DNA of 64,000 bases from Escherichia coli (lineage in GTDB: Bacteria > Pseudomonadota > Gammaproteobacteria > Enterobacterales > Enterobacteriaceae), in the NCBI RefSeq assembly GCF_048403405.1, contig NZ_CP183129.1; one strand, given 5' to 3'. Of this stretch, positions 1-20,147 are shown in pieces. The notes under the pieces were generated by a model that did not search any database, was not told the origin of the DNA, and was given only the letters and a program-made list of their open reading frames with translations. A program made the position numbers and the translations under genes. Numbering within the stretch: position 1 is the stretch's first letter; each line of letters starts with the position of its first letter.

Positions 1-1
1 G

Positions 2-244
2 GGGATTTCGGCGCTTCCTGGTCTGGCAATGCCCCATGCACCCTATTCTTCGATTATTGGTATCCCGCTGGTGGAACCGGTTATACGTCGGACATTGGGG
101 ATTATTCGCCGCAAAGATGCCGTGCTTTCTCCGGCAGCTGAACGCTTTTTTGCCTTGCTGATTAATTTGTGGACTGACGATAAAGACAATTTGTGGACCA
201 ATATCGTCGAACGCCAGAGACATGCGTTACAGGAGATAGGTTAA
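2..244 (+). CDS. ybhD: 3' end of a LysR-family transcriptional regulator (ybhD-like), truncated by the window start
   Basis: In-frame ORF running off the 5' edge and ending at 244; convergent with pgl as in the K-12 ybhD-pgl arrangement; identity inferred from synteny plus a LysR-like C-terminus, not from a strong motif. Confidence 0.5.
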   Translation, partial: GISALPGLAMPHAPYSSIIGIPLVEPVIRRTLGIIRRKDAVLSPAAERFFALLINLWTDDKDNLWTNIVERQRHALQEIG

Positions 245-248
245 TACA

Positions 249-272
249 CCGGCGCAGAAGAGACTGCGCCGG
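249..272. terminator. Bidirectional stem-loop between convergent ybhD and pgl
   Basis: Perfect 9-bp inverted repeat ccggcgcag / ctgcgccgg with a 6-nt loop, sitting between two convergent stop codons. Confidence 0.5.
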
Positions 273-284
273 GTAAATCAGCGG

Positions 285-1316
<1,032 letters not shown>

Positions 1317-1434
1317 CTAAAATTAGTCGCTTTTGGCGGTGAATGCTGAATTAAAACGCAGAATTTTGTCCGATAGTGGTATCGGTGTACCATTCGCGCA
1401 GAAGAAAATTCTTAACCTTAATCTGGAATACGCC

Positions 1435-2253
1435 ATGACCACACGCGTGATTGCTCTCGACTTAGACGGCACCTTATTGACCCCGAAAAAGACCTTGCTT
1501 CCATCATCGATAGAAGCCCTGGCCCGCGCTCGCGAAGCAGGCTATCAATTAATCATCGTCACAGGTCGCCATCACGTCGCTATTCATCCTTTTTATCAGG
1601 CGCTGGCGCTGGATACACCTGCTATTTGCTGTAATGGCACCTATTTGTATGATTATCATGCAAAAACCGTGCTGGAAGCGGACCCAATGCCCGTTAATAA
1701 AGCCCTGCAACTCATTGAGATGCTGAATGAACACCACATTCACGGTCTGATGTATGTCGATGATGCAATGGTCTATGAGCACCCGACCGGGCATGTCATT
1801 CGCACGTCTAACTGGGCGCAAACCCTGCCGCCGGAACAGCGTCCGACTTTCACACAAGTCGCTTCTCTGGCTGAAACGGCGCAACAAGTTAACGCCGTAT
1901 GGAAGTTCGCCCTGACGCACGATGACCTGCCTCAATTGCAGCATTTTGGTAAGCATGTCGAACATGAACTGGGACTGGAGTGCGAATGGTCCTGGCACGA
2001 TCAGGTTGATATTGCACGCGGCGGCAACAGCAAAGGTAAACGTTTGACGAAATGGGTTGAGGCACAAGGTTGGTCGATGGAAAACGTCGTGGCATTCGGC
2101 GATAACTTTAATGATATCAGTATGCTGGAAGCCGTTGGTACAGGCGTGGCGATGGGCAACGCCGATGACGCGGTAAAAGCGCGCGCCAACATTGTGATTG
2201 GTGATAACACCACCGACAGCATTGCCCAGTTCATTTATAGCCACCTGATTTAA
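1435..2253 (+). CDS. ybhA: HAD-family sugar phosphatase (Cof-type), YbhA
   Basis: ORF opens at 1333 but the start is set at the ATG at 1435 (MTTRVIALDLDGTLL, HAD motif I DxDGT) to give the 272 aa expected for YbhA. Confidence 0.88.
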   Translation: MTTRVIALDLDGTLLTPKKTLLPSSIEALARAREAGYQLIIVTGRHHVAIHPFYQALALDTPAICCNGTYLYDYHAKTVLEADPMPVNKALQLIEMLNEHHIHGLMYVDDAMVYEHPTGHVIRTSNWAQTLPPEQRPTFTQVASLAETAQQVNAVWKFALTHDDLPQLQHFGKHVEHELGLECEWSWHDQVDIARGGNSKGKRLTKWVEAQGWSMENVVAFGDNFNDISMLEAVGTGVAMGNADDAVKARANIVIGDNTTDSIAQFIYSHLI

Positions 2254-3312
2254 TCAGGCGGTTATCGACACACTTTTAATTTGCGCGTACAGCCACAAGC
2301 CTGGTTTGATCGCCAGTTCATCCCTGGCCCACGGGCTGATACGCGCCCACAGCGTTTTACCGCCGACTTCCAGCTCCACTTCCACCTGGCCGTTGTCGTC
2401 ATAACTATTAACAACTTTTGCCCGCAATACGTTACGAATGCTGGTTTGCTGCGGCGGTTGTAAAACCAGCGAGACATCGGTAGCCTGAATGCGGATGCGT
2501 AGCGCAGCTTGCAGCGGTTCGTCCAGCTTATTGACCCACAAATGCTGATCGCCCAGCGCCAGCGCGGTCATCGCGTAATGCGGATGATGCTCAAGCACCG
2601 TCACTTTCAGAATGCTACTTTGTTGCTCTTTCGGCAGCCACGGATTCATCACGCTACTGCCCCACACTTCCTCCAGCACGCCAAAGGCTTTCACCTGACC
2701 GTTTTCCAGTACCATCACTCTGTCTGCCAGATGGAGGATCTCATCCAGCGAATGGCTGACATACAACATCGGAATGTTGATTTCCCGTGTCAGCCGTTGC
2801 AGATAAGGCAACAGTTCGCGTTTACGCGGAATATCCAGTGACGCCAGCGGTTCATCCAGCAACAGCAATTCCGGTGCTGTCAGCAAAGCCCGACCAATCG
2901 CCACGCGCTGTTTTTCGCCTCCGGACAGGCTGCCTGGTAAACGGTCAAGCAACGGTTCAATGCCTAAAAGCGCCACCAGCTTATCGAACTGATCGACCAT
3001 ACTTTTCGACATGCCGTAGCGCAGATTGCCACGCACTTTGTAATGCGGGAACAGCCGCGCATCCTGAAAAACATAGCCAACGCGACGCTTTTCTGGCGTC
3101 AGGCAGATACCTTTTTCGGCATCATTTAGTACCCGCCCATTGAGGACAATCCGCCCTTTTTGCGGGCGCGTCAGTCCACTGATGGCGTTAATCAGCGAAG
3201 TTTTTCCGGCACCGGAGACGCCAAAGATAGCAGTGATGCCATTGGCGGGCAGCGTTTCATTAATGGTCAGGCAATGGTTGCCCAACGTCTGGGAAAAATT
3301 CAGTTCCAGCAT
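2254..3312 (-). CDS. modC: Molybdate ABC transporter ATP-binding protein
   Basis: 352 aa; Walker [12 protein letters not shown] signature LSGGEKQR, C-terminal TOBE domain; synteny with modB and modA. Confidence 0.95.
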
Positions 3313-3314
3313 GA

Positions 3315-4004
3315 TTAGCGCCCCGCCCGTTCACGGCTGATTCTGGCCAGCCATTCTGAAATCAACAGGGAGATCATCGCCAGTGCAATAGAAATAATGC
3401 ACAGTCTCGCCGCGCCACTTTCCCCGCCGGGGGTCTGGATCAGGGTATACATGGCAGAAGGAATGGTTCGCGTTTCACCAGGAATGTTCGACACAAAGGT
3501 GATGGTTGCACCAAACTCACCGAGAGAACGAGCAAAAGCCAGTACCGTACCAACAATAATGCCCGGTAAGGTCAGCGGTAACGTGATAGTAAAGAAAACG
3601 CGCCAGCGCCCGGCACCCAGTGTTCTTGCGGCCTGTTCCAGTTTGATATCAACACCTTCCAGCGCCAGACGAATTGCCCGCACCATCAGCGGAAACGACA
3701 TGACGGCGGCAGCGAGAACCGCGCCGCGCCAGCTAAAGGCGAAGGTAATGCCAAACCAGTCATACAGACGTTCACCGATAAATCCGCGCCGTCCCATCGA
3801 AACTAATAATAAGTAACCGACGACCACGGGCGGTAACACCAGCGGTAGATGCAGTACGCTGTCGAGCAGAGCTTTGCCCGGAAACGTGCAACGCACCAGT
3901 AACCAGGCAAAAAAGATCCCAAACGGCAGGCTAAACAGCACAGCCAGGGAAGAAACTTTCAGGCTTAGTAAAACCGCCTGCCATTCTGGATCGGTCAGTA
4001 TCAT
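3315..4004 (-). CDS. modB: Molybdate ABC transporter permease
   Basis: 229-aa polytopic membrane ORF between modA and modC; recognised as ModB. Confidence 0.95.
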
Positions 4005-4777
4005 TACTTGGTTGTAAATCCGTAACGTTTAAAGATTTCCGCAGCCTGCGGCCCCTTCAGATAATCATAAAATGCTTTCACTGTCGCATTGTTATGCCCT
4101 TCCACAACAGCAACCGGATATTCCACTTTTTTATGTGAATCTTCCGGGAAGGTGGCAACCACTTTTACCCCTTTGCTGGCAACTGCGTCAGAACCGTAAA
4201 CAATGCCCAACGGCGCTTCATTGCGTTCGACCAACGCCAGCGCGCCACGAACATCTTCCGCCGGAGCCAGTTTCGGGGAGAGCGTATCCCATGCGCCCAG
4301 TTTTTGCAGTGCTTCTTTTGCATAAATGCCAGCGGGAACATGTTCCGGATCGCCAACCGCCAGGCGACCGCCATTCAGCAGTGAAGTCCAATTGGTTTTG
4401 CTGTCGATGGTGAAATCTTTCTGCTCGCTGGCTTTCGGTGCTACAACGACCAGGCTATTGCCGAGCAGTGTCTGACGTGTAGCTGTATCGATCGCTTTTT
4501 TATCAACCGCATAATCCATCCATTTCTGATCGGCAGAAATAAACAGATCCGCAGGCGCACCCGCTTCAATCTGACGGGCCAAAGTAGATGACGAAGCGAA
4601 AGAAGAAACCACATCCACGCCTTTCTCTTTTTTATACTGCGTAGCAATGTCCTGCATTGCGTTAGTCAGTGATGCGGCGGCGAACACCGTGATTTTCCCT
4701 TCATCTGCCAGTGCATTGCCAGCAACAGCGAAAGAGAGTGCCGCCCCGGCAAACAAGTTCAACCATTTACGAGCCAT
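4004..4777 (-). CDS. modA: Molybdate-binding periplasmic protein
   Basis: 257 aa with N-terminal signal peptide (MARKWLNLFAGAALSFAVAGNALA); recognised as ModA. Confidence 0.95.
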   Translation of the reverse strand: MARKWLNLFAGAALSFAVAGNALADEGKITVFAAASLTNAMQDIATQYKKEKGVDVVSSFASSSTLARQIEAGAPADLFISADQKWMDYAVDKKAIDTATRQTLLGNSLVVVAPKASEQKDFTIDSKTNWTSLLNGGRLAVGDPEHVPAGIYAKEALQKLGAWDTLSPKLAPAEDVRGALALVERNEAPLGIVYGSDAVASKGVKVVATFPEDSHKKVEYPVAVVEGHNNATVKAFYDYLKGPQAAEIFKRYGFTTK

Positions 4778-4796
4778 TGGTAACCCCTTAATGTAA

Positions 4797-4820
4797 CGTT
4801 ATGTAGGCGTCAATATAACG
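4797..4820 (-). promoter_or_regulatory. Candidate ModE operator in the modA promoter
   Basis: Imperfect palindrome cgttatgtaggcgtcaatataacg about 20-40 bp upstream of the modA start; resembles the TA-rich ModE operator dyad as I recall it. Confidence 0.5.
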
Positions 4821-4942
4821 GCTAACTCAGAATTTTCCCAGCAGTTATTGCTAACCTTTGTGAGGTAGATGAGAAAAAATATCGGCAGGAAAAGCAGGAA
4901 GTTGAGCAAAAGAAATGCCCGGCTAAGCGGGCATTCAGGGAA

Positions 4943-5110
<168 letters not shown>

Positions 5111-5220
5111 TCATGAGACTATTCTAACCGCTAAGCACAGAAAAGCACTCCCCTTTTGTGCGGTCAGCTTTGCGTGGCGTTCGTTTTCCGTCACAATAAG
5201 ACTTTTGCCAGGACATTGTT

Positions 5221-6009
5221 ATGCAGGCCGAAATCCTTCTCACCCTTAAGCTCCAACAAAAATTATTCGCCGACCCGCGCCGCATTTCGCTACTAAAACA
5301 CATTGCGCTTTCCGGTTCCATTAGCCAGGGAGCGAAAGATGCCGGTATCAGCTATAAAAGCGCCTGGGATGCCATTAACGAGATGAATCAGTTAAGTGAG
5401 CATATTCTGGTCGAGCGCGCAACAGGCGGTAAAGGTGGCGGCGGCGCAGTACTGACCCGCTATGGTCAGCGACTGATTCAGCTCTATGACTTACTGGCGC
5501 AAATCCAGCAAAAAGCCTTTGATGTGTTAAGTGACGATGACGCCCTGCCGCTGAACAGCCTGCTGGCCGCGATCTCACGTTTTTCACTGCAAACCAGCGC
5601 CCGTAACCAGTGGTTCGGTACCATCACCGCCCGCGATCATGATGACGTTCAACAGCATGTTGATGTCTTACTGGCTGACGGAAAAACACGCCTGAAAGTC
5701 GCAATTACCGCACAAAGCGGCGCGCGTCTGGGGCTGGATGAAGGCAAAGAAGTGTTGATATTACTAAAAGCGCCGTGGGTAGGCATTACTCAGGACGAAG
5801 CGGTCGCACAAAACGCCGACAACCAATTACCGGGTATTATTAGTCATATTGAGCGCGGCGCAGAGCAGTGCGAAGTATTAATGGCGCTACCCGACGGGCA
5901 AACACTGTGCGCCACAGTGCCGGTAAATGAAGCGACTTCTCTTCAGCAAGGACAGAATGTCACGGCCTACTTTAATGCCGACAGCGTGATTATCGCCACG
6001 CTATGCTAA
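5221..6009 (+). CDS. modE: Molybdate-responsive transcriptional regulator ModE
   Basis: 262 aa; N-terminal HTH and tandem C-terminal Mop domains; recognised as ModE; divergent from modABC. Confidence 0.95.
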   Translation: MQAEILLTLKLQQKLFADPRRISLLKHIALSGSISQGAKDAGISYKSAWDAINEMNQLSEHILVERATGGKGGGGAVLTRYGQRLIQLYDLLAQIQQKAFDVLSDDDALPLNSLLAAISRFSLQTSARNQWFGTITARDHDDVQQHVDVLLADGKTRLKVAITAQSGARLGLDEGKEVLILLKAPWVGITQDEAVAQNADNQLPGIISHIERGAEQCEVLMALPDGQTLCATVPVNEATSLQQGQNVTAYFNADSVIIATLC

Positions 6010-6076
6010 GCGTGTTGACAATTTGTTATGAAACACGTATCCCTGTCAGTAATCGCTGCACAAAATGGGATATAAA

Positions 6077-7549
6077 ATGTCATCGTTGCAAATTTTGCAA
6101 GGCACGTTTCGTCTTAGCGACACAAAAACGCTGCAATTGCCTCAGCTAACGTTAAACGCGGGTGATAGTTGGGCGTTTGTCGGTTCGAATGGAAGCGGGA
6201 AATCGGCCCTGGCCCGCGCGCTGGCGGGGGAACTTCCGCTTTTGAAAGGTGAACGGCAAAGCCAGTTTTCCCACATCACTCGTCTCTCCTTCGAGCAATT
6301 GCAAAAGCTCGTCAGCGACGAATGGCAGCGGAATAACACCGATATGCTCGGCCCTGGCGAAGATGACACCGGGCGTACCACGGCTGAAATCATTCAGGAT
6401 GAAGTAAAGGATGCACCGCGTTGTATGCAACTGGCGCAGCAGTTCGGTATTACCGCCCTCCTCGACCGACGCTTTAAATACCTTTCCACTGGCGAGACGC
6501 GAAAAACCCTGCTGTGTCAGGCGCTGATGTCGGAGCCTGACTTGTTGATTCTTGATGAGCCGTTCGATGGCCTGGATGTTGCCTCACGTCAGCAGCTGGC
6601 TGAGCTACTCGCCTCGTTACATCAGTCCGGTATTACTCTGGTACTGGTGCTCAATCGCTTCGATGAGATCCCGGAATTTGTCCAGTTTGCTGGCGTGCTG
6701 GCGGATTGTACGTTAGCGGAAACGGGCGCTAAAGAGGAACTGCTCCAGCAAGCACTCGTCGCGCAACTGGCGCATAGCGAACAGCTTGAAGGTGTACAAC
6801 TGCCGGAGCCGGATGAACCTTCAGCACGTCACGCCTTACCCGCCAACGAACCGCGCATTGTGCTGAACAATGGCGTGGTTTCTTATAACGATCGTCCCAT
6901 TCTTAATAACCTTAGCTGGCAGGTGAATCCAGGCGAGCACTGGCAAATTGTCGGGCCAAATGGCGCGGGAAAATCAACATTATTAAGCCTGATTACTGGC
7001 GATCATCCGCAAGGTTACAGCAACGATTTAACGCTTTTCGGACGACGTCGCGGCAGCGGCGAAACCATCTGGGATATCAAAAAGCATATCGGTTACGTCA
7101 GCAGTAGTTTGCATCTGGATTACCGGGTCAGCACTACCGTGCGTAATGTGATCCTTTCTGGCTATTTTGATTCGATTGGCATTTATCAGGCCGTTTCGGA
7201 TCGCCAGCAAAAACTGGTGCAGCAGTGGCTGGATATTCTCGGCATTGATAAACGCACGGCTGACGCTCCTTTCCATAGTCTTTCCTGGGGACAGCAGCGT
7301 CTGGCGCTGATTGTCCGCGCACTGGTGAAACATCCGACGTTGCTTATTCTCGATGAACCACTACAGGGGCTTGATCCACTCAATCGCCAGCTTATCCGCC
7401 GTTTTGTTGATGTGCTGATTAGCGAAGGTGAAACGCAATTGTTGTTTGTTTCGCACCACGCTGAAGATGCGCCTGCCTGTATTACCCATCGTCTTGAGTT
7501 CGTGCCGGACGGTGACTTTTATCGCTATGCGCTGACAAAAATAAACTGA
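6077..7549 (+). CDS. modF: ABC-type ATPase ModF (two ATP-binding cassettes)
   Basis: Start set at the ATG at 6077 (MSSLQILQG..., 490 aa); two Walker A motifs (GSNGSGKS, GPNGAGKS). Confidence 0.9.
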   Translation: MSSLQILQGTFRLSDTKTLQLPQLTLNAGDSWAFVGSNGSGKSALARALAGELPLLKGERQSQFSHITRLSFEQLQKLVSDEWQRNNTDMLGPGEDDTGRTTAEIIQDEVKDAPRCMQLAQQFGITALLDRRFKYLSTGETRKTLLCQALMSEPDLLILDEPFDGLDVASRQQLAELLASLHQSGITLVLVLNRFDEIPEFVQFAGVLADCTLAETGAKEELLQQALVAQLAHSEQLEGVQLPEPDEPSARHALPANEPRIVLNNGVVSYNDRPILNNLSWQVNPGEHWQIVGPNGAGKSTLLSLITGDHPQGYSNDLTLFGRRRGSGETIWDIKKHIGYVSSSLHLDYRVSTTVRNVILSGYFDSIGIYQAVSDRQQKLVQQWLDILGIDKRTADAPFHSLSWGQQRLALIVRALVKHPTLLILDEPLQGLDPLNRQLIRRFVDVLISEGETQLLFVSHHAEDAPACITHRLEFVPDGDFYRYALTKIN

Positions 7550-7716
7550 GTCGGTAATGCTGACTGTACCGGAGGCGGCCTAAGCGCCCTCTCCGGCCTA
7601 CTGTTCGACGCATCCAGGCATGAAACCGCGTCTTTTTTTCAGATAAAAAGCGCAATCATTCATAAAGCCGCTGTTTTATAATCACTTAATCGCGCATAAA
7701 AAACGGCTAAATTCCT

Positions 7717-7732
7717 GTGTAAACGATTCCAC
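7717..7732 (+). promoter_or_regulatory. gal external operator OE (GalR/GalS site)
   Basis: Exact match to the OE sequence as I recall it, GTGTAAACGATTCCAC, upstream of the gal promoters. Confidence 0.8.
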
Positions 7733-7790
7733 TAATTTATTCCATGTCACACTTTTCGCATCTTTGTTATGCTATGGTTATTTCATACCA
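7731..7790 (+). promoter_or_regulatory. gal promoter region: CRP site and overlapping P2/P1 -10 elements
   Basis: actaatttattccatgtcaca (CRP site, read on the opposite strand) followed by tttgttatgctatggttatttcatacca, the classical gal extended -10 region. Confidence 0.7.
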
Positions 7791-7810
7791 TAAGCCTAAT
7801 GGAGCGAATT

Positions 7811-8827
7811 ATGAGAGTTCTGGTTACCGGTGGTAGCGGTTACATTGGAAGTCATACCTGTGTGCAATTACTGCAAAACGGTCATGATGTCATCATTCTT
7901 GATAACCTCTGTAACAGTAAGCGCAGCGTACTGCCCGTTATCGAGCGTTTAGGCGGCAAACATCCAACGTTTGTTGAAGGCGATATCCGTAACGAAGCGT
8001 TGATGACCGAGATCCTGCACGATCACGCTATCGACACTGTGATCCACTTCGCCGGGCTGAAAGCCGTTGGCGAATCGGTACAAAAACCGCTGGAATATTA
8101 CGACAACAATGTTAACGGCACTCTGCGCCTGATTAGCGCCATGCGCGCCGCGAACGTCAAAAACTTTATTTTTAGCTCCTCCGCCACCGTTTATGGCGAT
8201 CAGCCCAAAATTCCATACGTTGAAAGCTTCCCGACCGGCACACCGCAAAGCCCTTACGGCAAAAGCAAGCTGATGGTGGAACAGATCCTCACCGATCTGC
8301 AAAAAGCCCAGCCGGACTGGAGCATTGCCCTGCTGCGCTACTTCAACCCGGTTGGCGCGCATCCGTCGGGCGATATGGGCGAAGATCCGCAAGGCATTCC
8401 GAATAACCTGATGCCATACATCGCCCAGGTTGCTGTAGGCCGTCGCGACTCGCTGGCGATTTTTGGTAACGATTATCCGACCGAAGACGGTACTGGCGTA
8501 CGCGATTACATCCACGTAATGGATCTGGCCGACGGTCACGTCGTGGCGATGGAAAAACTGGCGAACAAGCCAGGCGTACACATCTACAACCTCGGCGCTG
8601 GCGTAGGCAGCAGCGTGCTGGACGTGGTTAATGCCTTCAGCAAAGCTTGCGGCAAACCGGTTAATTATCATTTTGCACCGCGTCGCGAGGGCGACCTTCC
8701 GGCCTACTGGGCGGACGCCAGCAAAGCCGACCGTGAACTGAACTGGCGCGTGACGCGCACACTCGATGAAATGGCGCAGGACACCTGGCACTGGCAGTCA
8801 CGCCATCCACAGGGATATCCCGATTAA
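7811..8827 (+). CDS. galE: UDP-glucose 4-epimerase
   Basis: Start at ATG 7811 (MRVLVTGGSGYIGSH, Rossmann GxxGxxG), 338 aa; recognised as GalE. Confidence 0.97.
   Translation: MRVLVTGGSGYIGSHTCVQLLQNGHDVIILDNLCNSKRSVLPVIERLGGKHPTFVEGDIRNEALMTEILHDHAIDTVIHFAGLKAVGESVQKPLEYYDNNVNGTLRLISAMRAANVKNFIFSSSATVYGDQPKIPYVESFPTGTPQSPYGKSKLMVEQILTDLQKAQPDWSIALLRYFNPVGAHPSGDMGEDPQGIPNNLMPYIAQVAVGRRDSLAIFGNDYPTEDGTGVRDYIHVMDLADGHVVAMEKLANKPGVHIYNLGAGVGSSVLDVVNAFSKACGKPVNYHFAPRREGDLPAYWADASKADRELNWRVTRTLDEMAQDTWHWQSRHPQGYPD
7830..7845 (+). promoter_or_regulatory. gal internal operator OI
   Basis: Exact match to the OI sequence as I recall it, GTGGTAGCGGTTACAT, inside the 5' end of galE. Confidence 0.8.
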
Positions 8828-8836
8828 GGAACGACC

Positions 8837-9883
8837 ATGACGCAATTTAATCCCGTTGATCATCCACATCGCCGCTACAACCCGCTCACCGGGCAATGGA
8901 TTCTGGTTTCACCGCACCGCGCTAAGCGCCCCTGGCAGGGGGCGCAGGAAACGCCAGCCAAACAGGTGTTACCTGCGCACGATCCAGATTGCTTCCTCTG
9001 CGCAGGTAATGTGCGGGTGACAGGCGATAAAAACCCCGATTACACCGGGACTTACGTTTTCACTAATGACTTTGCGGCCTTGATGTCTGACACGCCAGAT
9101 GCGCCAGAAAGCAACGATCCGCTGATGCGTTGCCAGAGCGCGCGCGGTACCAGCCGGGTGATCTGCTTTTCACCGGATCACAGTAAAACGTTGCCAGAAC
9201 TCAGCGTTGCGGCATTGACGGAAATCGTCAAAACCTGGCAGGAGCAAACCGCAGAACTGGGGAAAACATACCCATGGGTGCAGGTCTTTGAAAACAAAGG
9301 TGCGGCGATGGGCTGCTCTAACCCGCATCCGCACGGACAGATTTGGGCAAATAGCTTCCTGCCTAACGAAGCTGAGCGTGAAGACCGCCTGCAAAAAGAA
9401 TATTTTGCCGAACAGAAATCACCAATGCTGGTGGATTATGTTCAGCGCGAGCTGGCAGACGGTAGCCGTACCGTTGTCGAAACCGAACACTGGTTAGCCG
9501 TTGTGCCTTACTGGGCTGCCTGGCCGTTCGAAACGCTACTGCTGCCCAAAGCCCACGTTTTGCGGATCACCGATTTGACCGACGCCCAGCGCAGCGATTT
9601 GGCGCTGGCGTTGAAAAAGCTGACCAGTCGTTATGACAACCTCTTCCAGTGCTCCTTCCCCTACTCTATGGGCTGGCACGGCGCGCCATTTAATGGCGAA
9701 GAGAATCAACACTGGCAGCTGCACGCGCACTTTTATCCGCCTCTGTTGCGCTCCGCCACCGTACGTAAATTTATGGTTGGTTATGAGATGCTGGCAGAGA
9801 CCCAGCGAGACCTGACCGCAGAACAGGCAGCAGAGCGTTTGCGCGCAGTCAGCGATATCCATTTTCGCGAATCCGGAGTGTAA
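8837..9883 (+). CDS. galT: Galactose-1-phosphate uridylyltransferase
   Basis: 348 aa; active-site HPHGQ motif present; recognised as GalT. Confidence 0.97.
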
Positions 9884-9886
9884 GAA

Positions 9887-11035
9887 ATGAGTCTGAAAGA
9901 AAAAACACAATCTCTGTTTGCCAACGCATTTGGCTACCCTGCCACTCACACCATTCAGGCGCCTGGCCGCGTGAATTTGATTGGTGAACACACCGACTAC
10001 AACGACGGTTTCGTTCTGCCCTGCGCGATTGATTATCAAACCGTGATCAGTTGTGCACCACGCGATGACCGTAAAGTTCGCGTGATGGCAGCCGATTATG
10101 AAAATCAGCTCGACGAGTTTTCCCTCGATGCGCCCATTGTCGCGCATGAAAGCTATCAATGGGCTAACTACGTTCGTGGCGTGGTGAAACATCTGCAACT
10201 GCGTAACAACAGCTTCGGCGGCGTGGACATGGTGATCAGCGGCAATGTGCCGCAGGGTGCCGGGTTAAGTTCTTCCGCTTCACTGGAAGTCGCGGTCGGA
10301 ACCGTATTGCAGCAGCTTTATCATTTGCCGCTGGACGGCGCACAAATCGCGCTTAACGGTCAGGAAGCAGAAAACCAGTTTGTTGGCTGTAACTGCGGGA
10401 TCATGGATCAGCTAATTTCCGCACTCGGCAAGAAAGATCATGCCTTGCTGATTGACTGCCGCTCACTGGGGACTAAAGCAGTTTCCATGCCGAAAGGTGT
10501 GGCTGTCGTCATCATTAACAGTAACTTCAAACGTACCCTGGTTGGCAGCGAATACAACACCCGTCGTGAACAGTGCGAAACTGGTGCGCGTTTCTTCCAG
10601 CAGCCAGCGCTGCGCGATGTCACCATTGAAGAGTTCAACGCTGTTGCGCATGAACTGGACCCAATCGTGGCGAAACGCGTGCGTCATATCCTGACTGAAA
10701 ACGCCCGCACCGTTGAAGCTGCCAGCGCGCTGGAGCAAGGCGACCTGAAACGTATGGGCGAGTTGATGGCGGAGTCTCATGCCTCTATGCGCGATGATTT
10801 CGAAATCACCGTGCCGCAAATTGACACTCTGGTAGAAATCGTCAAAGCTGTGATTGGTGACAAAGGTGGCGTACGCATGACCGGCGGCGGATTTGGCGGC
10901 TGTATCGTCGCGCTGATCCCGGAAGAGCTGGTGCCTGCCGTACAGCAAGCTGTCGCTGAACAATATGAAGCAAAAACAGGTATTAAAGAGACTTTTTACG
11001 TTTGTAAACCATCACAAGGAGCAGGACAGTGCTGA
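9887..11035 (+). CDS. galK: Galactokinase
   Basis: 382 aa; GHMP kinase motifs ([11 protein letters not shown], GGGFGGC); recognised as GalK. Confidence 0.97.
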
Positions 11036-12069
11036 ACGAAACTCCCGCACTGGCACCCGATGGTCAGCCGTACCGACTGTTAACTTTGCGTAACAACGCA
11101 GGGATGGTAGTCACGCTGATGGACTGGGGTGCGACTTTACTTTCAGCCCGTATTCCGCTTTCCGATGGCAGCGTCCGCGAGGCGCTGCTCGGCTGTGCCA
11201 GCCCGGAATGCTATCAGGATCAGGCCGCGTTTCTGGGGGCCTCTATTGGTCGTTATGCCAACCGTATCGCCAATAGCCGTTATACCTTTGACGGTGAAAC
11301 CGTGACGCTTTCGCCAAGTCAGGGCGTTAACCAGCTGCACGGCGGCCCGGAAGGGTTCGACAAACGTCGCTGGCAGATTGTGAACCAGAACGATCGTCAG
11401 GTACTGTTTGCCCTGAGTTCAGATGATGGCGATCAGGGCTTCCCGGGTAATCTCGGTGCGACGGTGCAATATCGTCTGACCGACGATAACCGTATCTCCA
11501 TTACTTATCGCGCCACAGTTGATAAACCTTGCCCGGTGAATATGACTAATCACGTCTATTTCAATCTTGACGGCGAGCAGTCTGACGTGCGCAATCACAA
11601 GTTGCAGATTCTGGCGGACGAATATCTGCCGGTTGATGAAGGCGGCATTCCGCTCGACGGCCTGAAATCTGTCGCCGGAACGTCTTTTGATTTCCGCAGC
11701 GCCAAAATCATCGCCAGTGAGTTTCTTGCCGACGACGATCAGCGCAAAGTGAAAGGTTACGATCACGCATTCTTGTTACAGGCCAAAGGCGATGGCAAGA
11801 AAGTGGCGGCGCATGTCTGGTCAGCAGATGAAAAATTGCAGCTGAAGGTCTACACCACCGCTCCGGCTCTGCAATTCTACTCCGGCAACTTCCTCGGCGG
11901 CACACCGTCGCGGGGAACCGAACCTTACGCCGACTGGCATGGACTGGCTCTGGAAAGCGAATTTCTGCCGGACAGCCCGAACCACCCTGAATGGCCGCAA
12001 CCAGACTGCTTCCTGCGTCCTGGCGAAGAGTATTCCAGCCTGACGGAATATCAGTTTATTGCTCAGTAA
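11029..12069 (+). CDS. galM: Aldose 1-epimerase (galactose mutarotase)
   Basis: 346 aa; overlaps the galK 3' end by 7 nt; recognised as GalM. Confidence 0.95.
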
Positions 12070-12271
12070 TGTTAAGCCCTCGTCATGAGGGCTTTATCCT
12101 CATATTGTTCAAATCACCAGCAAACACCGACATATTTGCAACTCAATATTCACAACAACCTTACACTGCGACACTATTTTCGCTATGGTTATGCGTAAGC
12201 ATTGCTGTTGCTTCGTCACGGCAATATAATGAGAATTATTATCATTAAAAGATGATTTGAGGAGTAAGTAT

Positions 12272-13024
12272 ATGGCTGTAACTAAGCTGGTTCTGGTTCG
12301 TCATGGCGAAAGTCAGTGGAACAAAGAAAACCGTTTCACCGGTTGGTACGACGTGGATCTGTCTGAGAAAGGCGTAAGCGAAGCAAAAGCAGCAGGTAAG
12401 CTGCTGAAAGAGGAAGGTTACAGCTTTGACTTTGCTTACACCTCTGTGCTGAAACGCGCTATTCATACCCTGTGGAATGTGCTGGACGAACTGGATCAGG
12501 CATGGCTGCCCGTTGAGAAATCCTGGAAACTGAACGAACGTCACTACGGTGCGTTGCAGGGTCTGAACAAAGCGGAAACTGCTGAAAAGTATGGCGACGA
12601 GCAGGTGAAACAGTGGCGTCGTGGTTTTGCAGTGACTCCGCCGGAACTGACTAAAGATGATGAGCGTTATCCGGGTCACGATCCACGTTACGCGAAGCTG
12701 AGCGAGAAAGAACTGCCACTGACGGAAAGCCTGGCGCTGACCATTGACCGCGTGATCCCTTACTGGAATGAAACTATTCTACCGCGTATGAAGAGCGGTG
12801 AGCGCGTAATCATCGCTGCACACGGTAACTCGTTACGTGCGCTGGTGAAATATCTTGATAACATGAGCGAAGAAGAGATTCTTGAGCTGAATATCCCGAC
12901 CGGCGTGCCGCTGGTTTATGAGTTTGACGAGAACTTCAAACCGCTGAAACGCTATTATCTGGGTAATGCTGACGAGATCGCGGCGAAAGCAGCAGCCGTT
13001 GCGAACCAGGGTAAAGCGAAGTAA
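12272..13024 (+). CDS. gpmA: 2,3-bisphosphoglycerate-dependent phosphoglycerate mutase
   Basis: Start at ATG 12272 ([17 protein letters not shown], catalytic RHGE motif), 250 aa. Confidence 0.95.
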
Positions 13025-13049
13025 ACGTCATTCGTTTAAAAATGAGAAA

Positions 13050-13076
13050 GTCGACTGCAAGTGAGTCGGCTTTTTT
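13050..13076 (+). terminator. Rho-independent terminator of gpmA
   Basis: Stem gtcgact / agtcggc (one G-U pair), 7-nt loop, followed by TTTTTTGTTT. Confidence 0.65.
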
Positions 13077-13105
13077 GTTTGTCGTTGCTAACAATGGAGC
13101 ACATT

Positions 13106-13180
13106 GCCTGATGCGACGCTGCGCGTCTTGTCAGGGCTACGGTGATTCATCGGATACGCCACTCTGACGGCGCATCCGAC
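13106..13180. repeat. REP-type palindromic elements between gpmA and aroG
   Basis: gcctgatgcgacgctgcgcgtcttgtcagggctac matches the REP consensus seen again at 48.5 kb; a second imperfect palindrome cggatacgcc...ggcgcatccg follows. Confidence 0.6.
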
Positions 13181-13189
13181 AATTAAATC

Positions 13190-14242
13190 TTACCCGCGAC
13201 GCGCTTTTACTGCATTCGCCAGTTGACGTAATAGAGCATCGGTATCTTCCCAGCCGATGCAGGCATCAGTGATGCTCTTACCGTAGGCCAGCGGCTCCCC
13301 GCTCTCGAGGCTCTGATTGCCTTCCACCAAATGGCTTTCCACCATCACGCCAATAATGGCCTTTTCGCCACCGGCAATCTGCTGGCAAACGTCAGCACAA
13401 ACATCCATCTGCTTTTTGAATTGTTTTGACGAGTTAGCATGGCTGAAATCGATCATCACCTGTGCTGGCAGGCCTGATTTGTTCAGCCCTTCTTTCACTT
13501 CAGCAACGTGCTTCGCGCTGTAGTTAGGCTCTTTACCACCGCGCAGAATGATATGGCAATCGCCGTTACCGCTGGTATTCACAATCGCCGAATGCCCCCA
13601 TTTCGTTACGGACAGGAAGCAGTGCGGCGCACCGGCGGCATTAATGGCATCGATAGCCACTTTAATCGTACCGTCGGTGCCATTTTTGAAGCCGACCGGA
13701 CAAGAAAGACCAGACGCCAGTTCGCGGTGCACCTGCGATTCCGTAGTACGTGCGCCAATTGCGCCCCAGCTCATCAGGTCAGCGAGATATTGTGGGGTGA
13801 TCATATCGAGGAATTCACCCGCCGCTGGCAGACCGCTGTCGTTAATATCAAGCAGCAATTTACGGGCGATTCGCAAACCGTCGTTGATCTGGAAGCTGTT
13901 ATCCATATGTGGATCGTTAATCAGCCCTTTCCAGCCCACCGTGGTACGCGGCTTTTCAAAATAGACGCGCATCACGATTTCCAGCTCATCTTGCAGCTCT
14001 TCACGCAGCGCCAGCAAGCGAGTGGCATACTCTTTAGCCGCGACAGGATCATGAATTGAGCACGGGCCAATCACCACCAACAGGCGATCATCATTGCCTT
14101 TCAGGATCTTATGGATCGCTTTTCGGGCATGGGCAACCGTATTCGCGGCATTTTCAGTAGCGGGGAATTTTTCCAGCAATGCGACAGGAGGAAGTAACTC
14201 TTTGATTTCTTTGATGCGTAAATCGTCGTTCTGATAATTCAT
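13190..14242 (-). CDS. aroG: Phe-sensitive DAHP synthase
   Basis: 350 aa, MNYQNDDLRIKEIKELLPP...; recognised as AroG. Confidence 0.95.
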   Translation of the reverse strand: MNYQNDDLRIKEIKELLPPVALLEKFPATENAANTVAHARKAIHKILKGNDDRLLVVIGPCSIHDPVAAKEYATRLLALREELQDELEIVMRVYFEKPRTTVGWKGLINDPHMDNSFQINDGLRIARKLLLDINDSGLPAAGEFLDMITPQYLADLMSWGAIGARTTESQVHRELASGLSCPVGFKNGTDGTIKVAIDAINAAGAPHCFLSVTKWGHSAIVNTSGNGDCHIILRGGKEPNYSAKHVAEVKEGLNKSGLPAQVMIDFSHANSSKQFKKQMDVCADVCQQIAGGEKAIIGVMVESHLVEGNQSLESGEPLAYGKSITDACIGWEDTDALLRQLANAVKARRG

Positions 14243-14312
14243 GTCTGTTCCAGTGTTGCCATACTTATCTTAGTGAATGCAATACTTCCAATCTATATCT
14301 TCCGTCAGAATG

Positions 14313-14330
14313 TGTAAACGGGGTTTTACA
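14313..14330 (-). promoter_or_regulatory. TyrR box upstream of aroG
   Basis: Perfect TGTAAA-N6-TTTACA (tgtaaacggggttttaca) about 70 bp upstream of the aroG start. Confidence 0.6.
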
Positions 14331-14557
14331 CTATGAACGGATTAATCCTGGAATTAGCAAGAAAAACGCCAGATTGTCGCGAAAAACGAGATCTCTCCTA
14401 CAATTTCTAACTGTAACTCCTTTGTTTGTTAATTATTTCAAGATTCTCTGCTGCGTTTCATAACCTGGCTGAAATCTTAAACCAATGCCTTATATTCACC
14501 TGCAAATGCACTGTTGGAAGAGGTTATCCGACATAACGACCATAACAGGAGCATCCT

Positions 14558-14938
14558 ATGAAAATGACAAAACTGGCCACACTATTTCTGACTGCCACTC
14601 TAAGCCTTGCCAGCGGTTCCGCACTGGCTGCCGATAGCGGAGCGCAAACTAATAACGGCCAGGCAAACGCCGCAGCTGATGCGGGCCAGGTAGCCCCTGA
14701 CGCCCGTGAAAATGTCGCGCCAAATAACGTCGACAATAACGGGGTAAATACCGGTTCTGGCGGCACAATGCTGCATTCGGATGGTTCTTCAATGAACAAT
14801 GACGGCATGACCAAAGATGAAGAGCACAAGAACACCATGTGCAAAGATGGTCGCTGCCCGGATATCAATAAAAAAGTCCAAACCGGTGATGGCATCAACA
14901 ATGATGTCGATACCAAAACCGACGGTACCACGCAGTAA
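14558..14938 (+). CDS. ybgS: Secreted low-complexity protein YbgS
   Basis: 126 aa with signal peptide and an N/G/D-rich sequence; recognised as YbgS by sequence and synteny. Confidence 0.85.
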
Positions 14939-15051
14939 CCCTGCGAAATAGCCAATAATGGGAGAGCGGAGTCTCTCCCTTTTAATTTTTCCCTTCTAAA
15001 AGCAGTATGATGTCATAAAGTTAAGTGAGAATAATTAAGGGATGACTCGTC

Positions 15052-15993
15052 ATGGCGCACTCACACTCACACACTTCCTCACACCTGCCAGAAGATAATA
15101 ATGCTCGTCGCTTGTTGTATGCTTTCGGCGTGACTGCCGGGTTTATGCTCGTAGAAGTCATTGGTGGTTTTCTTTCCGGTTCTCTGGCATTGCTGGCCGA
15201 TGCGGGTCATATGTTGACCGATACTGCCGCCCTGCTTTTCGCCCTACTCGCAGTGCAATTTTCCCGTCGTCCTCCCACCATTCGCCACACTTTCGGTTGG
15301 CTAAGATTGACCACGCTCGCGGCGTTTGTGAATGCCATCGCCCTGGTGGTGATTACTATTTTGATTGTCTGGGAGGCGATAGAACGCTTCCGCACTCCGC
15401 GTCCGGTCGAGGGCGGCATGATGATGGCAATTGCCGTGGCTGGGCTGCTGGCAAATATACTTTCTTTCTGGTTACTTCATCACGGCAGCGAAGAGAAAAA
15501 CCTCAACGTGCGAGCAGCGGCACTGCATGTGCTCGGGGACCTGCTGGGTTCGGTTGGGGCTATTATTGCCGCGTTGATTATTATCTGGACCGGCTGGACA
15601 CCTGCTGACCCCATTCTCTCAATACTGGTGTCGCTTCTGGTTCTGCGTAGCGCGTGGCGACTGTTGAAAGATAGCGTGAATGAATTACTTGAAGGTGCAC
15701 CGGTATCGCTGGATATCGCCGAACTGAAGCGTCGTATGTGCCGGGAAATCCCGGAAGTCCGCAATGTGCACCATGTACATGTATGGATGGTAGGCGAGAA
15801 GCCGGTGATGACGCTGCATGTGCAGGTGATCCCGCCACACGATCACGATGCCTTGTTAGATCAGATCCAACACTACCTGATGGATCACTATCAGATTGAA
15901 CACGCCACTATTCAGATGGAATATCAACCTTGTCATGGGCCAGACTGCCACCTGAATGAAGGGGTGTCTGGCCATTCACATCATCACCATTAA
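15052..15993 (+). CDS. zitB: Zn(II) efflux transporter, cation diffusion facilitator family
   Basis: 313 aa; His-rich N and C termini ([11 protein letters not shown]..., ...GHSHHHH) and CDF transmembrane core. Confidence 0.93.
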
Positions 15994-16709
15994 TGGGACA
16001 GCGCGCGTGAACCTCTTTCGCGTGCGCTGTTGATCCACATCCGGCTGCCGTTGAGGGCAATAAAGGTCAGGATGATGTACTCCAGAGACATGGCGTAAAC
16101 GCCCTGAAGTGCAAAAATAACGACGCTAATCACGTTAATAATCACCCACAACAGCCAGTTTTCCACATACTTACGCGTCATCAGAATCATTGCCACGATA
16201 GATAACACCATCATGCAGGAATCCCAGAACGGGAAAGCGTCCGGCTGTAGTTCAGGCATCGCAACCTGTAATCCTAATGCTTGCATGATCATGACTGCCA
16301 CGCGGGTCAAAAATGCAAACACCGGATTGATAAATACCGTCATCAGACCAATCGAAACAACGCAAACCGCCAACCAGCTTAGCGCCTTCGGCAATGGCAA
16401 CCAGCGAATTTTCAACTCCGCCTCGTTCTGACTGGTTTGTCGCGACCACGCATACCAGCCGTAAATATTCGCGGCAAAGAAAAACACCTGTAATAGCAGG
16501 CTGGCATACAGCTGAATCTGAAAGAAAATAATGCCAAACAATGTGACGTTGATCAGGCCAAAGAAGTAGTTGCTGATCTTCTCCAGACTGGCAAGGCCAA
16601 TACACAGCAACCCGGCGATCGTGCCTACCGCTTCGATCCATGAGAGATCATAACCGCCTGCTCCTATTGGTATATGTACCAGGATATTCTGCACACTAAA
16701 AAAATCCAT
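15990..16709 (-). CDS. pnuC: Nicotinamide riboside transporter
   Basis: 239-aa membrane protein; recognised as PnuC; convergent with and overlapping the zitB 3' end. Confidence 0.93.
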
Positions 16710-16746
16710 CTTTCCCCCAAAGCGTAACGTTACGCCTTATTATTCG

Positions 16747-17790
16747 TTATCCACGTAGTGTAGCCGCAAAATCCAGCATACGATTGAGCGGCACCAGCGC
16801 CCTCTCTCGCAGCCTTTCCTCAACATGAACCTCGTGATTGCTTCCTTCCTGTTCTAATGCCTCTGCGATGGCCTGAAGGCCATTCATGGCCATCCACGGA
16901 CAATGCGCGCAGCTGCGGCAGGTTGCACCCTCACCAGCGGTTGGTGCTTCCAGTAACTCTTTATCTGGCACCGCCTGCTGCATTTTGTAGAAAATACCCC
17001 GATCGGTTGCCACAATAAGCCTCTGATGTGGCAATGTTTTCGCAGCAGCGATCAGTTGACTGGTGGAACCGACCGCATCCGCCATCTCTACAATAGCTTG
17101 TGGTGATTCTGGATGCACCAGTATGGCAGCATCCGGGTATTCTTCTTGCAAGCGGGTTAACGCCTGAGTCTTAAATTCATCATGCACAATGCAGGCACCC
17201 TGCCAGCATAAAATGTCTGCGCCCGTCTGTTTTTGCACGTAACGCCCCAGATGTTTGTCGGGTGCCCAGATGATTTTTTCACCCAAACTATCCAGATGAT
17301 CAATAAGTTCGACGGCAATGCTTGAAGTTACCACCCAATCTGCCCGCGCTTTTACCGCAGCAGAAGTGTTGGCGTAGACGACGACAGTATGATCGGGATG
17401 GGCATCGCAAAATGCGTTAAATTCTTCAACAGGGCAGCCGAGATCCAGTGAACATTCAGCCTGAAGTGTCGGCATCAGAATTGTTTTTTCCGGACTGAGA
17501 ATTTTGGCGGTTTCTCCCATAAATCTCACCCCAGCGACTAACAACGTAGAAGCGGGATGCTTTGCACCGAAGCGCGCCATTTCCAGAGAATCAGAAATAC
17601 AGCCACCGGTTTCTTCTGCCAGTTGTTGAATTTCGGGATCGGTATAGTAATGGGCAACCATCACCGCATTACGTTCTTTTAGCAGACGTTTTATCTTCTC
17701 GCGGTAATACGCTTTTTCATCAATGCTTAACGGCGTCGGCTTCGGGGGGAAAGGATAAATCGCCGTGTCTGGATCAAACATCACGCTCAT
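16747..17790 (-). CDS. nadA: Quinolinate synthase A
   Basis: Start set at [18 protein letters not shown] (347 aa) rather than the first ATG of the ORF; recognised as NadA. Confidence 0.93.
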
Positions 17791-17861
17791 CTTACCATCT
17801 CGTTTCACAGGCTTAACGTTAAAACCGACTTAAGCGTGATATTCGCTATTATCGGCGTAAT

Positions 17862-17881
17862 TTGTTTTATATGCTAAACAA
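17862..17881 (-). promoter_or_regulatory. Candidate NadR operator upstream of nadA
   Basis: Inverted repeat ttgttt-N8-aaacaa (ttgttttatatgctaaacaa) about 80 bp upstream of nadA, resembling the NadR TGTTTA...TAAACA dyad. Confidence 0.45.
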
Positions 17882-18035
17882 GATAGTCGAATGGTGGGGA
17901 AAAGTCACTCGAATTACGTATGAGATGACGAATGCCACACTTTGCGTCTTATTCCTCCGACGTAGAGTTGTTTACGCAGCAAGCGCGGAGTATGTCATCA
18001 GGGTTAAGCATTGAAATTGAGAGATGCCTGAATAG

Positions 18036-18064
18036 CAAAAAAGCGCCTTTAGGGCGCTTTTTTA
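18036..18064 (-). terminator. Terminator of the Lys/Val tRNA operon
   Basis: aaaaaagcgcc-ttta-gggcgctttttt hairpin flanked by T/A runs on both strands. Confidence 0.65.
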
Positions 18065-18066
18065 CA

Positions 18067-18083
18067 TTGGTGGGTCGTGCAGG
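18067..18083 (-). pseudogene. 17-nt remnant of a tRNA-Lys 3' end
   Basis: tggtgggtcgtgcagga is identical to the 3' terminal 17 nt (read as reverse complement) of the intact tRNA-Lys copies, then diverges; it abuts the operon terminator. Confidence 0.5.
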
Positions 18084-18165
18084 ATGACTCGCTTCGCTCG
18101 CCCTACGGGCCGTTGCTGGCGCAACGTTATCCTTCACGCTTAACATCTGAGTTTGATGTTAAAAT

Positions 18166-18241
18166 TGGTGGGTCGTGCAGGATTCGAACCTGCGACCAAT
18201 TGATTAAAAGTCAACTGCTCTACCAACTGAGCTAACGACCC
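18166..18241 (-). tRNA. tRNA-Lys (anticodon UUU)
   Basis: 76-nt match to E. coli tRNA-Lys read on the minus strand (GGGTCGTTAGCTCAGTTGGTAGAGC...CACCA); encoded CCA. Confidence 0.95.
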
Positions 18242-18244
18242 GAG

Positions 18245-18320
18245 TGGTGGGTGATGACGGGATCGAACCGCCGACCCCCTCCTTGTAAGGGAGGTGCTCT
18301 CCCAGCTGAGCTAATCACCC
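18245..18320 (-). tRNA. tRNA-Val (anticodon UAC)
   Basis: 76-nt match to E. coli tRNA-Val (GGGTGATTAGCTCAGCTGGGAGAGC...); 3-nt spacer from the neighbouring tRNA-Lys. Confidence 0.95.
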
Positions 18321-18371
18321 GATACTGCGCTGGATACTACAAACTACTTCCACCGAACCCACCGTAATTAG

Positions 18372-18447
18372 TGGTGGGTCGTGCAGGATTCGAACCTGCG
18401 ACCAATTGATTAAAAGTCAACTGCTCTACCAACTGAGCTAACGACCC
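18372..18447 (-). tRNA. tRNA-Lys (anticodon UUU)
   Basis: Identical copy of the tRNA-Lys sequence. Confidence 0.95.
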
Positions 18448-18449
18448 GG

Positions 18450-18525
18450 TGGTGGGTGATGACGGGATCGAACCGCCGACCCCCTCCTTGTAAGGGAGGT
18501 GCTCTCCCAGCTGAGCTAATCACCC
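18450..18525 (-). tRNA. tRNA-Val (anticodon UAC)
   Basis: Identical copy of the tRNA-Val sequence; 2-nt spacer. Confidence 0.95.
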
Positions 18526-18560
18526 GATACTACGCTGGATACTACAACTAACTAGGTTAG

Positions 18561-18636
18561 TGGTGGGTCGTGCAGGATTCGAACCTGCGACCAATTGATT
18601 AAAAGTCAACTGCTCTACCAACTGAGCTAACGACCC
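18561..18636 (-). tRNA. lysT: tRNA-Lys (anticodon UUU)
   Basis: Promoter-proximal copy of tRNA-Lys in the array. Confidence 0.95.
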
Positions 18637-18800: not shown

Positions 18801-19592
18801 TTACATCGCGTTCAGACGTTTTTGTGCCTGTTTAGCGCCATCAGTACCAGGGTATTTACTGATAACCTGCTGGTATACGGCTTTCGCTTTTGCGGTGTCA
18901 CCTTTGTCCTGCATGATGACACCGACTTTAAACATCGCATCTGCAGCCTTTGGCGACTTCGGATAGTTTTTTACTACCGAAGCAAAATAGTACGCCGCAT
19001 CATCTTTTTTACCCTTGTTGTAGTTTAACTGACCCAGCCAATAATTGGCGTTTGGCAGGTAAGTTGAATCAGGGTAATTTTTGATGAAATTCTGAAATGC
19101 CACCATTGCGTCATCCTGGCGGGATTTATCCTGCACCAGCGCAATTGCTGCATTGTAATCCGTGTTTGCATCGCCGCTTTTCACCGGCGCGCCAGCATTC
19201 GCAGTACCAGCATCAGCTGTCGGCGTCGTTGATGCCGCCGCACCGCTTTGATCACCGCTGGTTGATTGCGCCGCTGCACCACCGCTGCTGAGGCTATCGA
19301 TCTGCAACAGGATCTGCTTTTGCCGCTCCACGACCTGATTCAGTTGATACTGATTTTCCTGAATCTGACCACGCAGGGAATCAATATCGGATTGATTATC
19401 AGAGAGTTGTTGCTGGAGTTGGGTTAAAAGCTGGCTGTGAGCATTTGAAATACGCTCAAGTTGAGTGACGCGGTCTTCGACCGAGCCTGAGCCGACACTA
19501 CTGATTGGTGCCTGAGCAAAAGCGGCCCAGGGGGCCGCTATACCAACCAGTAACGACAGACTCAATAGTTGATGTCTGAAGTTACTGCTCAT
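18801..19592 (-). CDS. cpoB: Cell division coordinator CpoB (YbgF)
   Basis: 263 aa; signal peptide, coiled-coil and C-terminal TPR repeats; last gene of the tol-pal cluster. Confidence 0.93.
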   Translation of the reverse strand: MSSNFRHQLLSLSLLVGIAAPWAAFAQAPISSVGSGSVEDRVTQLERISNAHSQLLTQLQQQLSDNQSDIDSLRGQIQENQYQLNQVVERQKQILLQIDSLSSGGAAAQSTSGDQSGAAASTTPTADAGTANAGAPVKSGDANTDYNAAIALVQDKSRQDDAMVAFQNFIKNYPDSTYLPNANYWLGQLNYNKGKKDDAAYYFASVVKNYPKSPKAADAMFKVGVIMQDKGDTAKAKAVYQQVISKYPGTDGAKQAQKRLNAM

Positions 19593-19601
19593 GCAATTCT
19601 C

Positions 19602-20147
<546 letters not shown>

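Follow-up and report, generated by a model that had tools for sequence, protein, structure and literature searches.

The lysT tRNA operon of Escherichia coli accounts for five of the six tRNA-Lys genes of K-12 and is essential in that strain (PMC11480407). In the 64,000-nt stretch of E. coli DNA analyzed here, hereafter the window, the operon has five intact tRNA genes and then, close to its terminator, an isolated copy of the 3' end of tRNA-Lys. The question raised by this locus is whether the fragment is the debris of a lost gene and, if it is not, how the operon came to its present size. The original prediction held that recombination between tRNA-Lys copies had removed one or more genes and left the fragment behind. 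The explanation favored here, with somewhat better than even confidence, is that the window carries a rare truncated lysT allele, ending in an RtT element, which arose from a seven-gene ancestor through exchange between two RtT copies.

The operon lies on the minus strand between cpoB (ybgF) and nadA and, as is typical of the lysT operon, is transcribed away from cpoB. ARAGORN called five intact 76-nt tRNA genes, all on the minus strand and in the transcript order Lys-Val-Lys-Val-Lys, and the K-12 gene sequences match the three Lys and two Val copies exactly. The predicted alternation of identical Lys(UUU) and Val(UAC) genes is thereby confirmed. The first gene, a tRNA-Lys(UUU) at the lysT position (18561-18636), scores 79.2 bits with the Rfam tRNA model and is identical to K-12 tRNA-Lys. 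A 35-nt spacer separates it from the tRNA-Val(UAC) at the valT position (18450-18525), which is followed after 2 nt (CC) by the tRNA-Lys(UUU) at the lysW position (18372-18447). After a further spacer of 51 nt come the tRNA-Val(UAC) at the valZ position (18245-18320) and, 3 nt (CUC) later, the tRNA-Lys(UUU) at the lysY position (18166-18241), which is the last intact gene. These four assignments are based on ARAGORN, Rfam and the comparison with K-12. The CC and CUC spacers between Val and Lys have been described for K-12 (PMC4176162). Spacers of 2-3 nt had been predicted with the correct lengths but in the wrong direction, since they lead from Val to Lys, and the Lys-to-Val spacers are those of 35 and 51 nt. 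Both of the long spacers lack the RtT element that K-12 has in the same place. Compared with the full set of five tRNA-Lys(UUU) and two tRNA-Val(UAC) genes, the window holds three and two.

The operon closes with a Rho-independent terminator hairpin, AAAAAAGCGCC-CUAAA-GGCGCUUUUUU (18037-18063, minus strand; RNAfold, -19.1 kcal/mol). Its sequence is the same as that of the K-12 lysQ and lysV terminators (see also PMC4176162). Although this is a textbook bidirectional terminator, it was a false negative in the consensus terminator scan because its A-tract pairs with its T-tract. The sole terminator called by this simple scan, at 18111-18126 on the plus strand, is the antisense of the RtT core hairpin. 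A simple promoter scan found no promoter.

The fragment itself is an exact copy, ATCCTGCACGACCCACCA, of the last 18 nt of tRNA-Lys (18068-18085, minus strand; 18 of 18 nt identical), with 80 nt between it and the last Lys gene upstream and 4 nt between it and the terminator hairpin downstream. An exact copy about 80 nt downstream and directly before the terminator had been predicted; its extent had been given as 17 nt at 18067-18083, which is not correct. If the following AT, common to the context of the last gene, is counted, the copy comprises 20 nt. It covers the end of the T loop, the 3' strand of the T stem, the 3' strand of the acceptor stem, the discriminator base and the CCA. The 18-mer is found four times in the window, in the three genes and the fragment, compared to 0.00 expected in 100 shuffles, and a chance match is thus ruled out. 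A pseudo-tRNA is also ruled out, given that the tRNA-like part is only 18 nt long and is called neither by ARAGORN nor by the Rfam tRNA model.

Instead, the fragment forms the 3' terminus of an RtT element of the short Lys-linked type, in which an 80-nt body is joined to the 18-nt tRNA-Lys 3' end (98 nt in total; 18068-18165, minus strand). The Rfam model RF00391 scores 54.4 bits here (E = 2.4e-9 on 2 kb), compared to a gathering threshold of 45, and the match is also reported when the whole window is searched at that threshold. The element begins directly after the tRNA-Lys gene at 18166-18241, on the same strand and within the tRNA transcription unit. The covariance-model match extends over 18068-18234 and overlaps that gene because the T arm stands in for a 5' hairpin missing from short Lys-linked copies; the element proper is 18068-18165. 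Automated annotation of such matches would therefore yield RtT coordinates that overlap a tRNA gene. The two core hairpins, CGUUGC-loop-GCAACG and then GCCC-loop-GGGC, are present with high posterior probability in the covariance-model alignment. In the minimum free energy fold, the 5' arm CGUGAAGGAU pairs with AUCCUGCACG to form a closing helix with 9 of 10 pairs and one A-G mismatch.

The same arrangement is found in K-12. In the lysT operon of MG1655, an element of about 100 nt with this tRNA-Lys fragment at its end follows each tRNA-Lys gene. The operon contains five such fragments, and one more follows lysV. RF00391 matches the operon five times, with scores of 46.7-60 bits. A further RtT copy is located after the first terminator and precedes a second, identical terminator. 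In the relatives of the window, PGAP annotates an "RtT sRNA" at the lysT locus. The fragment is therefore the normal 3' end of an RtT element and not a deletion scar, and the prediction that a deletion had left it behind does not hold, as it is already present in K-12 and in seven-gene relatives as the RtT 3' terminus. The seven-gene K-12 array given in the original prediction was borne out for MG1655. It had also been considered that K-12 might possess the same five-gene-plus-fragment structure. K-12 does possess the fragments, five of them in the operon, but it has seven genes rather than five. The seven genes of MG1655 argue that the gene count of the window is derived, and the fragments of MG1655 argue that the fragment is ancestral.

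Both lysQ and lysV, the latter being the sixth Lys gene of K-12, are followed by the same module, consisting of ATGT, the terminator, a 126-nt RtT element (RtT'), ATGT and the identical terminator (829-1015 of the extracted K-12 lysV locus and 2653-2842 of the extracted MG1655 lysT locus). Since RtT' is beyond the first terminator, it would be transcribed only by read-through.

RtT is best known as the RtT RNA, or rttR, of the tyrT operon (RF00391), and the copy in the window shares its common core, AACGYUGC...GCAACGRCCCGNAGGGYGAR. In both cases, the element is downstream of a tRNA gene, its 3' end copies the 3' end of the host tRNA including the CCA, and a closing helix forms between the 5' arm and this tRNA 3'-end copy. 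Scores of 133-137 bits are obtained for the tyrT copies, which are about 130 nt long, lie in repeat units of 178 nt and terminate in the tRNA-Tyr 3' end. In contrast, the 98-nt copy in the window, which scores 54 bits, terminates in the tRNA-Lys 3' end and has no counterpart of the first internal hairpins. A processed, stable RtT RNA is reported for the tyrT copy only (Bosl and Kersten 1991, as cited in PMC3318445).

A pattern scan for the RtT core in species-representative genomes yielded at least 120 loci, with 141 copies among the matches listed, from Citrobacter, Enterobacter, Klebsiella, Pantoea, Erwinia, Hafnia, Budvicia, Gilliamella and other genera. Among these matches, at least 64 cores follow tRNA-Lys(UUU), at least 47 follow tRNA-Tyr(GUA), at least 20 follow tRNA-Arg(ACG), at least eight follow tRNA-Pro(UGG or CGG) and at least two follow tRNA-Glu(UUC). 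In 135 of the 141 copies among the matches listed, the element closes with at least 15 nt (median 18-19) that match the 3' end of the nearest upstream tRNA exactly; in the other six the agreement covers only 6-12 nt, and these look like point-mutated copies. A "tRNA 3' fragment" in this position is thus a characteristic part of an RtT element rather than evidence of a broken gene. The folds follow the host as well. Specifically, GGGGAAGGAT pairs with ATCCTTCCCC in Tyr-linked copies, CGTGAAGGAT with ATCCTGCACG in Lys-linked copies and CAGGGAGGAT with ATCCTCCCGG in Arg-linked copies. Among the matches listed, the 5' arm forms 8.8-9.4 of 10 pairs with the fragment of its own host, compared to 6.8-8.7 with those of other hosts. 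The 5' arm thus covaries with the 3' end of the host tRNA, and the closing helix is compensated by host. No description of this multi-host pattern (Lys, Tyr, Arg, Pro and Glu) was found in the literature searched.

The 5' arm CGTGAAGGAT in the window (18120-18139) keeps GAAGG, which is the 5' strand of the T stem of tRNA-Tyr, and this produces the A-G mismatch with the Lys fragment. In some RtT copies, GTGTAGGAT restores a U-G pair, and GGTTCGAATCCT, at the junction of core and fragment, is common to tRNA-Tyr and tRNA-Lys. Taken together, the GAAGG arm, the GTGTAGGAT copies and the common GGTTCGAATCCT hint that the Lys type of RtT may have been derived from the Tyr type.

Integrases commonly target the 3' ends of tRNA genes and duplicate 15-20 nt in the process. 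Thus, the direct repeat of the tRNA 3' end could in principle be the attL and attR of a decayed integrative element that was once inserted in tRNA-Lys, and it would fit such an origin that each RtT element is flanked by a repeat of this kind and is present or absent slot by slot. However, the repeats are separated by only 80 nt, and the intervening sequence belongs to a conserved structured RNA family that is found after five tRNA species. Moreover, no integrase gene is annotated in the lysT, lysV and tyrT loci examined, and no full-length integrase element with an RtT core was seen among the at least 120 loci listed. An integration scar is for these reasons extremely unlikely.

With the fragment assigned to RtT, what is left to explain is the number of genes. 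Three parts of the window, 1-17900, 19000-43000 and 43000-64000 (about 62.9 kb), are each, as a single piece, 100.0% identical to the complete genomes of strains MS 69-1 and TUM1226, which also carry the top bit score in each of these searches. MS 69-1, TUM14771 and TUM1226 all have a seven-gene operon with the structure L-V-L-V-L-RtT-sp48-L-sp33-L-terminator1-RtT'-terminator2, in which L and V denote tRNA-Lys and tRNA-Val, and sp48 and sp33 the spacers of 48 and 33 nt before lysZ and lysQ, respectively. In a base-by-base comparison, the sole difference from MS 69-1 is that the window lacks 389 bp, which include lysZ, lysQ, terminator 1 and the 5' part of RtT'. In the relatives, a perfect direct repeat of 48 nt, ACGGCCCGTAGGGCGAGCGAAGCGAGTCATCCTGCACGACCCACCAAT, lies at both ends of the missing segment, once in the RtT element after lysY and once in the terminal RtT'. 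One copy remains in the window at 18066-18113 (minus strand), and this stretch is the interval within which the two sides were joined. Identical repeats that bound the missing segment in the parent, with one copy remaining, are what a deletion between direct repeats leaves. Judged from these sequences, the five-gene count is a derived, shortened form of the seven-gene operon. Because lysZ and lysQ are absent, the dosage of Lys genes in the operon is three rather than five, and the predicted difference in dosage from K-12 is correct.

In other respects, the window resembles the K-12 operon in its site between cpoB and nadA, its gene sequences, its CC and CUC spacers, its terminator and its RtT element after lysY (PMC4176162), the body of which differs by one base from the K-12 copy. 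Unlike K-12, the window possesses no lysZ, lysQ, terminator 1 or separate terminal RtT'. It also lacks the RtT elements that K-12 has after lysT and lysW, and the closest relatives lack these two as well.

The immediate ancestor would then have been a seven-gene operon with the structure seen in these relatives. Recombination or replication slippage between the identical 48-nt 3' parts of the lysY RtT and the terminal RtT' would have removed the 389 bp, that is, sp48, lysZ, sp33, lysQ, terminator 1 and the 5' part of RtT'. The operon would have been left with three Lys genes, two Val genes, a single hybrid RtT element and terminator 2. Short-repeat deletion in E. coli can act on repeats of 39-48 nt that are separated by a few hundred bp. 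The event presumably took place in the cell and not during assembly, by either RecA-dependent exchange or slippage, and the supply of tRNA-Lys has presumably been lowered. Multi-step routes to the same structure are formally possible. Changes in the copy number of tandem tRNA genes, such as those of the tyrT/tyrV doublet and the glyV-W-X-Y array (the latter noted in PMC4539685, which treats tRNA copy number in E. coli and does not discuss Lys), likewise involve identical genes that are gained or lost via short direct repeats. In contrast to those cases, the exchange partners in the window would be copies of the RtT spacer and not the tRNA genes, so that a terminator was lost as well.

The identity of the partners is the point at which exchange between RtT copies departs from the mechanism originally predicted. 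The removal of genes by deletion between direct repeats agrees with that prediction, while the repeat involved is the 48-nt RtT repeat and not a tRNA-Lys gene. An unequal crossover between two tRNA-Lys genes, with the fragment as the remnant of the one destroyed, would account for the identity of the fragment to the tRNA-Lys 3' end and for the reduced number of genes. However, the 80 nt before the fragment are an RtT body, only one base removed from that of K-12 lysY, and the seven-gene relatives already carry the fragment, of which the K-12 operon has five copies. Furthermore, the identity at the junction extends over 48 nt, 30 nt of which lie upstream of the tRNA-derived part. Had lysQ recombined through its 3' end, terminator 1 and RtT' would still be in place, and both are missing. 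The sequence downstream of the surviving terminator, GCTATTCAGG, is that of terminator 2 in the seven-gene form, which excludes a crossover with the lysQ 3' end and with it an exchange "between tRNA-Lys copies". Finally, an exchange between whole genes leaves no fragment, as is illustrated by the RtT-free six-gene allele of strain MEI3O-23. A crossover between tRNA-Lys genes is very unlikely on this evidence.

A different kind of concern is that the operon may in reality have seven genes and that the assembler jumped the 48-nt RtT repeat, or the tRNA-Lys or terminator repeats, and dropped a 389-bp loop. Repeats of 76, 54 and 48 nt crowd the locus, and one repeat-bounded gap is all that distinguishes the 62.9 kb searched from MS 69-1 and TUM1226, with 100% identity elsewhere. 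In addition, the exact sequence of the window is in none of 5,426 complete RefSeq genomes; its source is therefore probably a draft assembly, and one of the same clone would fit. Against this, the window reads through the remaining repeats of the array without a break, whole lineages such as O157:H7 are fixed for four Lys genes, and the same junction is found in two different FDA-ARGOS complete genomes of one lineage. The last observation indicates that the deletion exists as a heritable allele. An artifact is accordingly a serious possibility but a doubtful one, and a deletion through exchange between RtT copies is preferred.

The distribution of this allele was examined in the complete genomes of E. 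coli. Counts from full-locus BLAST were replaced by flank-only, spacer-presence and junction (9-nt overhang) queries, as pieces that overlapped the repeats had been joined inconsistently. The flank-only query recovered the locus in 5,407 of the 5,426 genomes. At least one of sp48 and sp33 is kept in 5,396 of the 5,426, and the three-Lys type is therefore limited to at most 30. The junction of the window was found as a single piece in only three genomes, FDAARGOS_1370, FDAARGOS_1371 and K-12 EMG2; for the remaining genomes without both spacers, at most 27, this query would be confounded by the valY-lysV-terminator locus. Like the window, these three genomes have five genes and a lysY RtT joined directly to ATGT-terminator-nadA. 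Their genetic backgrounds, however, differ from that of the window, and each keeps the upstream RtT copies of its own lineage. FDAARGOS_1370 and FDAARGOS_1371 belong to one lineage and differ in genome size. Compared to MG1655, K-12 EMG2 (NZ_CP099588.1) has a 488-bp deletion at a 39-nt RtT repeat and lacks lysZ and lysQ. MG1655, with its seven genes, descends from EMG2-type K-12, and for this reason the EMG2 allele could be an assembly error; otherwise it would be a mutation specific to the stock.

Among 59 genomes sampled evenly along the ranking, the operon has five Lys genes in 53, four in five, six in one and three in none, and two Val genes in all 59. Overall, the E. coli lysT operon ranges from three to six Lys genes, and the comparison of strains that had been proposed as a check thus reveals a copy-number polymorphism. 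These counts also bear on whether the five-gene form with one fragment could be ancestral and the forms with six to eight genes later expansions. A terminal "Lys-RtT" is indeed a common end of Lys operons in other genera. Yet the closest relatives, with 0 differences in about 62.9 kb, have seven genes, the majority of the sampled genomes have five operon Lys genes and none has three, and the junction is confined to three of 5,426 genomes with unrelated backgrounds. The chance that the five-gene form is ancestral is close to negligible, and derivation from a seven-gene operon is retained.

The locus is about 610 to 1,290 bp long among E. coli strains, a spread that reflects the many combinations in which RtT slots are occupied. 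The five RtT slots of the operon are filled or empty independently in each strain, and every copy is bounded by the 18-nt direct repeat. All five slots are filled in K-12 and none is filled in APEC IMT5155 or strain 2D. About 22% of the complete genomes have no match at all to the Lys-type RtT, so these elements are dispensable. Rearrangements in the other direction were also observed: strain 2018-02-2CC has an eight-gene operon with a duplicated Lys-RtT-sp33 unit, and strain CB8671 has two tandem terminator-RtT' units.

Other features were noted elsewhere in the window. The CpoB/ybgF intercistronic RNA thermometer (RF02782, 142 bits) is located between pal and cpoB at 19563-19701 on the minus strand. 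Two adjacent matches to the REP-derived naRNA4/CssrE occur on the plus strand at 48521-48591 and 48616-48686, with 79.6 and 86.8 bits, respectively; this part of the window has dozens of matching places per genome. The region 19000-43000 is covered to at least 80% in only 1,121 of the 5,426 genomes, and part of it is therefore an accessory island. Genes annotated in it include those for methylaspartate mutase subunit E, GlmL, an AtuA-family protein and a class I fumarate hydratase near cydA.

Previous knowledge covers the operon, the RtT family, the annotation of RtT at the lysT locus and changes in the copy number of tandem tRNA genes, and the five-gene allele itself is already present in public genomes. 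Two practical points follow from this locus. In enterobacteria, whenever a short exact copy of a tRNA 3' end turns up downstream of a tRNA gene, RtT (RF00391) should be considered first, ahead of a gene remnant or an integration scar, and caution is needed with gene counts for the lysT array that come from draft assemblies. A genuine deletion would leave the strain with three tRNA-Lys(UUU) genes in the operon instead of five, and the decoding of AAA and AAG could then be slightly lower, although O157:H7 and other four-copy lineages do well. More broadly, RtT might be a module that mimics the tRNA 3' end, is or once was copied beside different tRNAs, adopts the 3' end of its host and adjusts its 5' arm so that a closing helix is preserved, and whose copies provide the main breakpoints for changes in gene dosage in the Enterobacterales, with the allele in the window as one outcome. 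As a whole, this proposal is speculative and rather unlikely to be correct. Nevertheless, the occurrence of RtT after five tRNA species, the copied host 3' end, the compensated helix and the association with gene-number breakpoints may be worth a small separate study.
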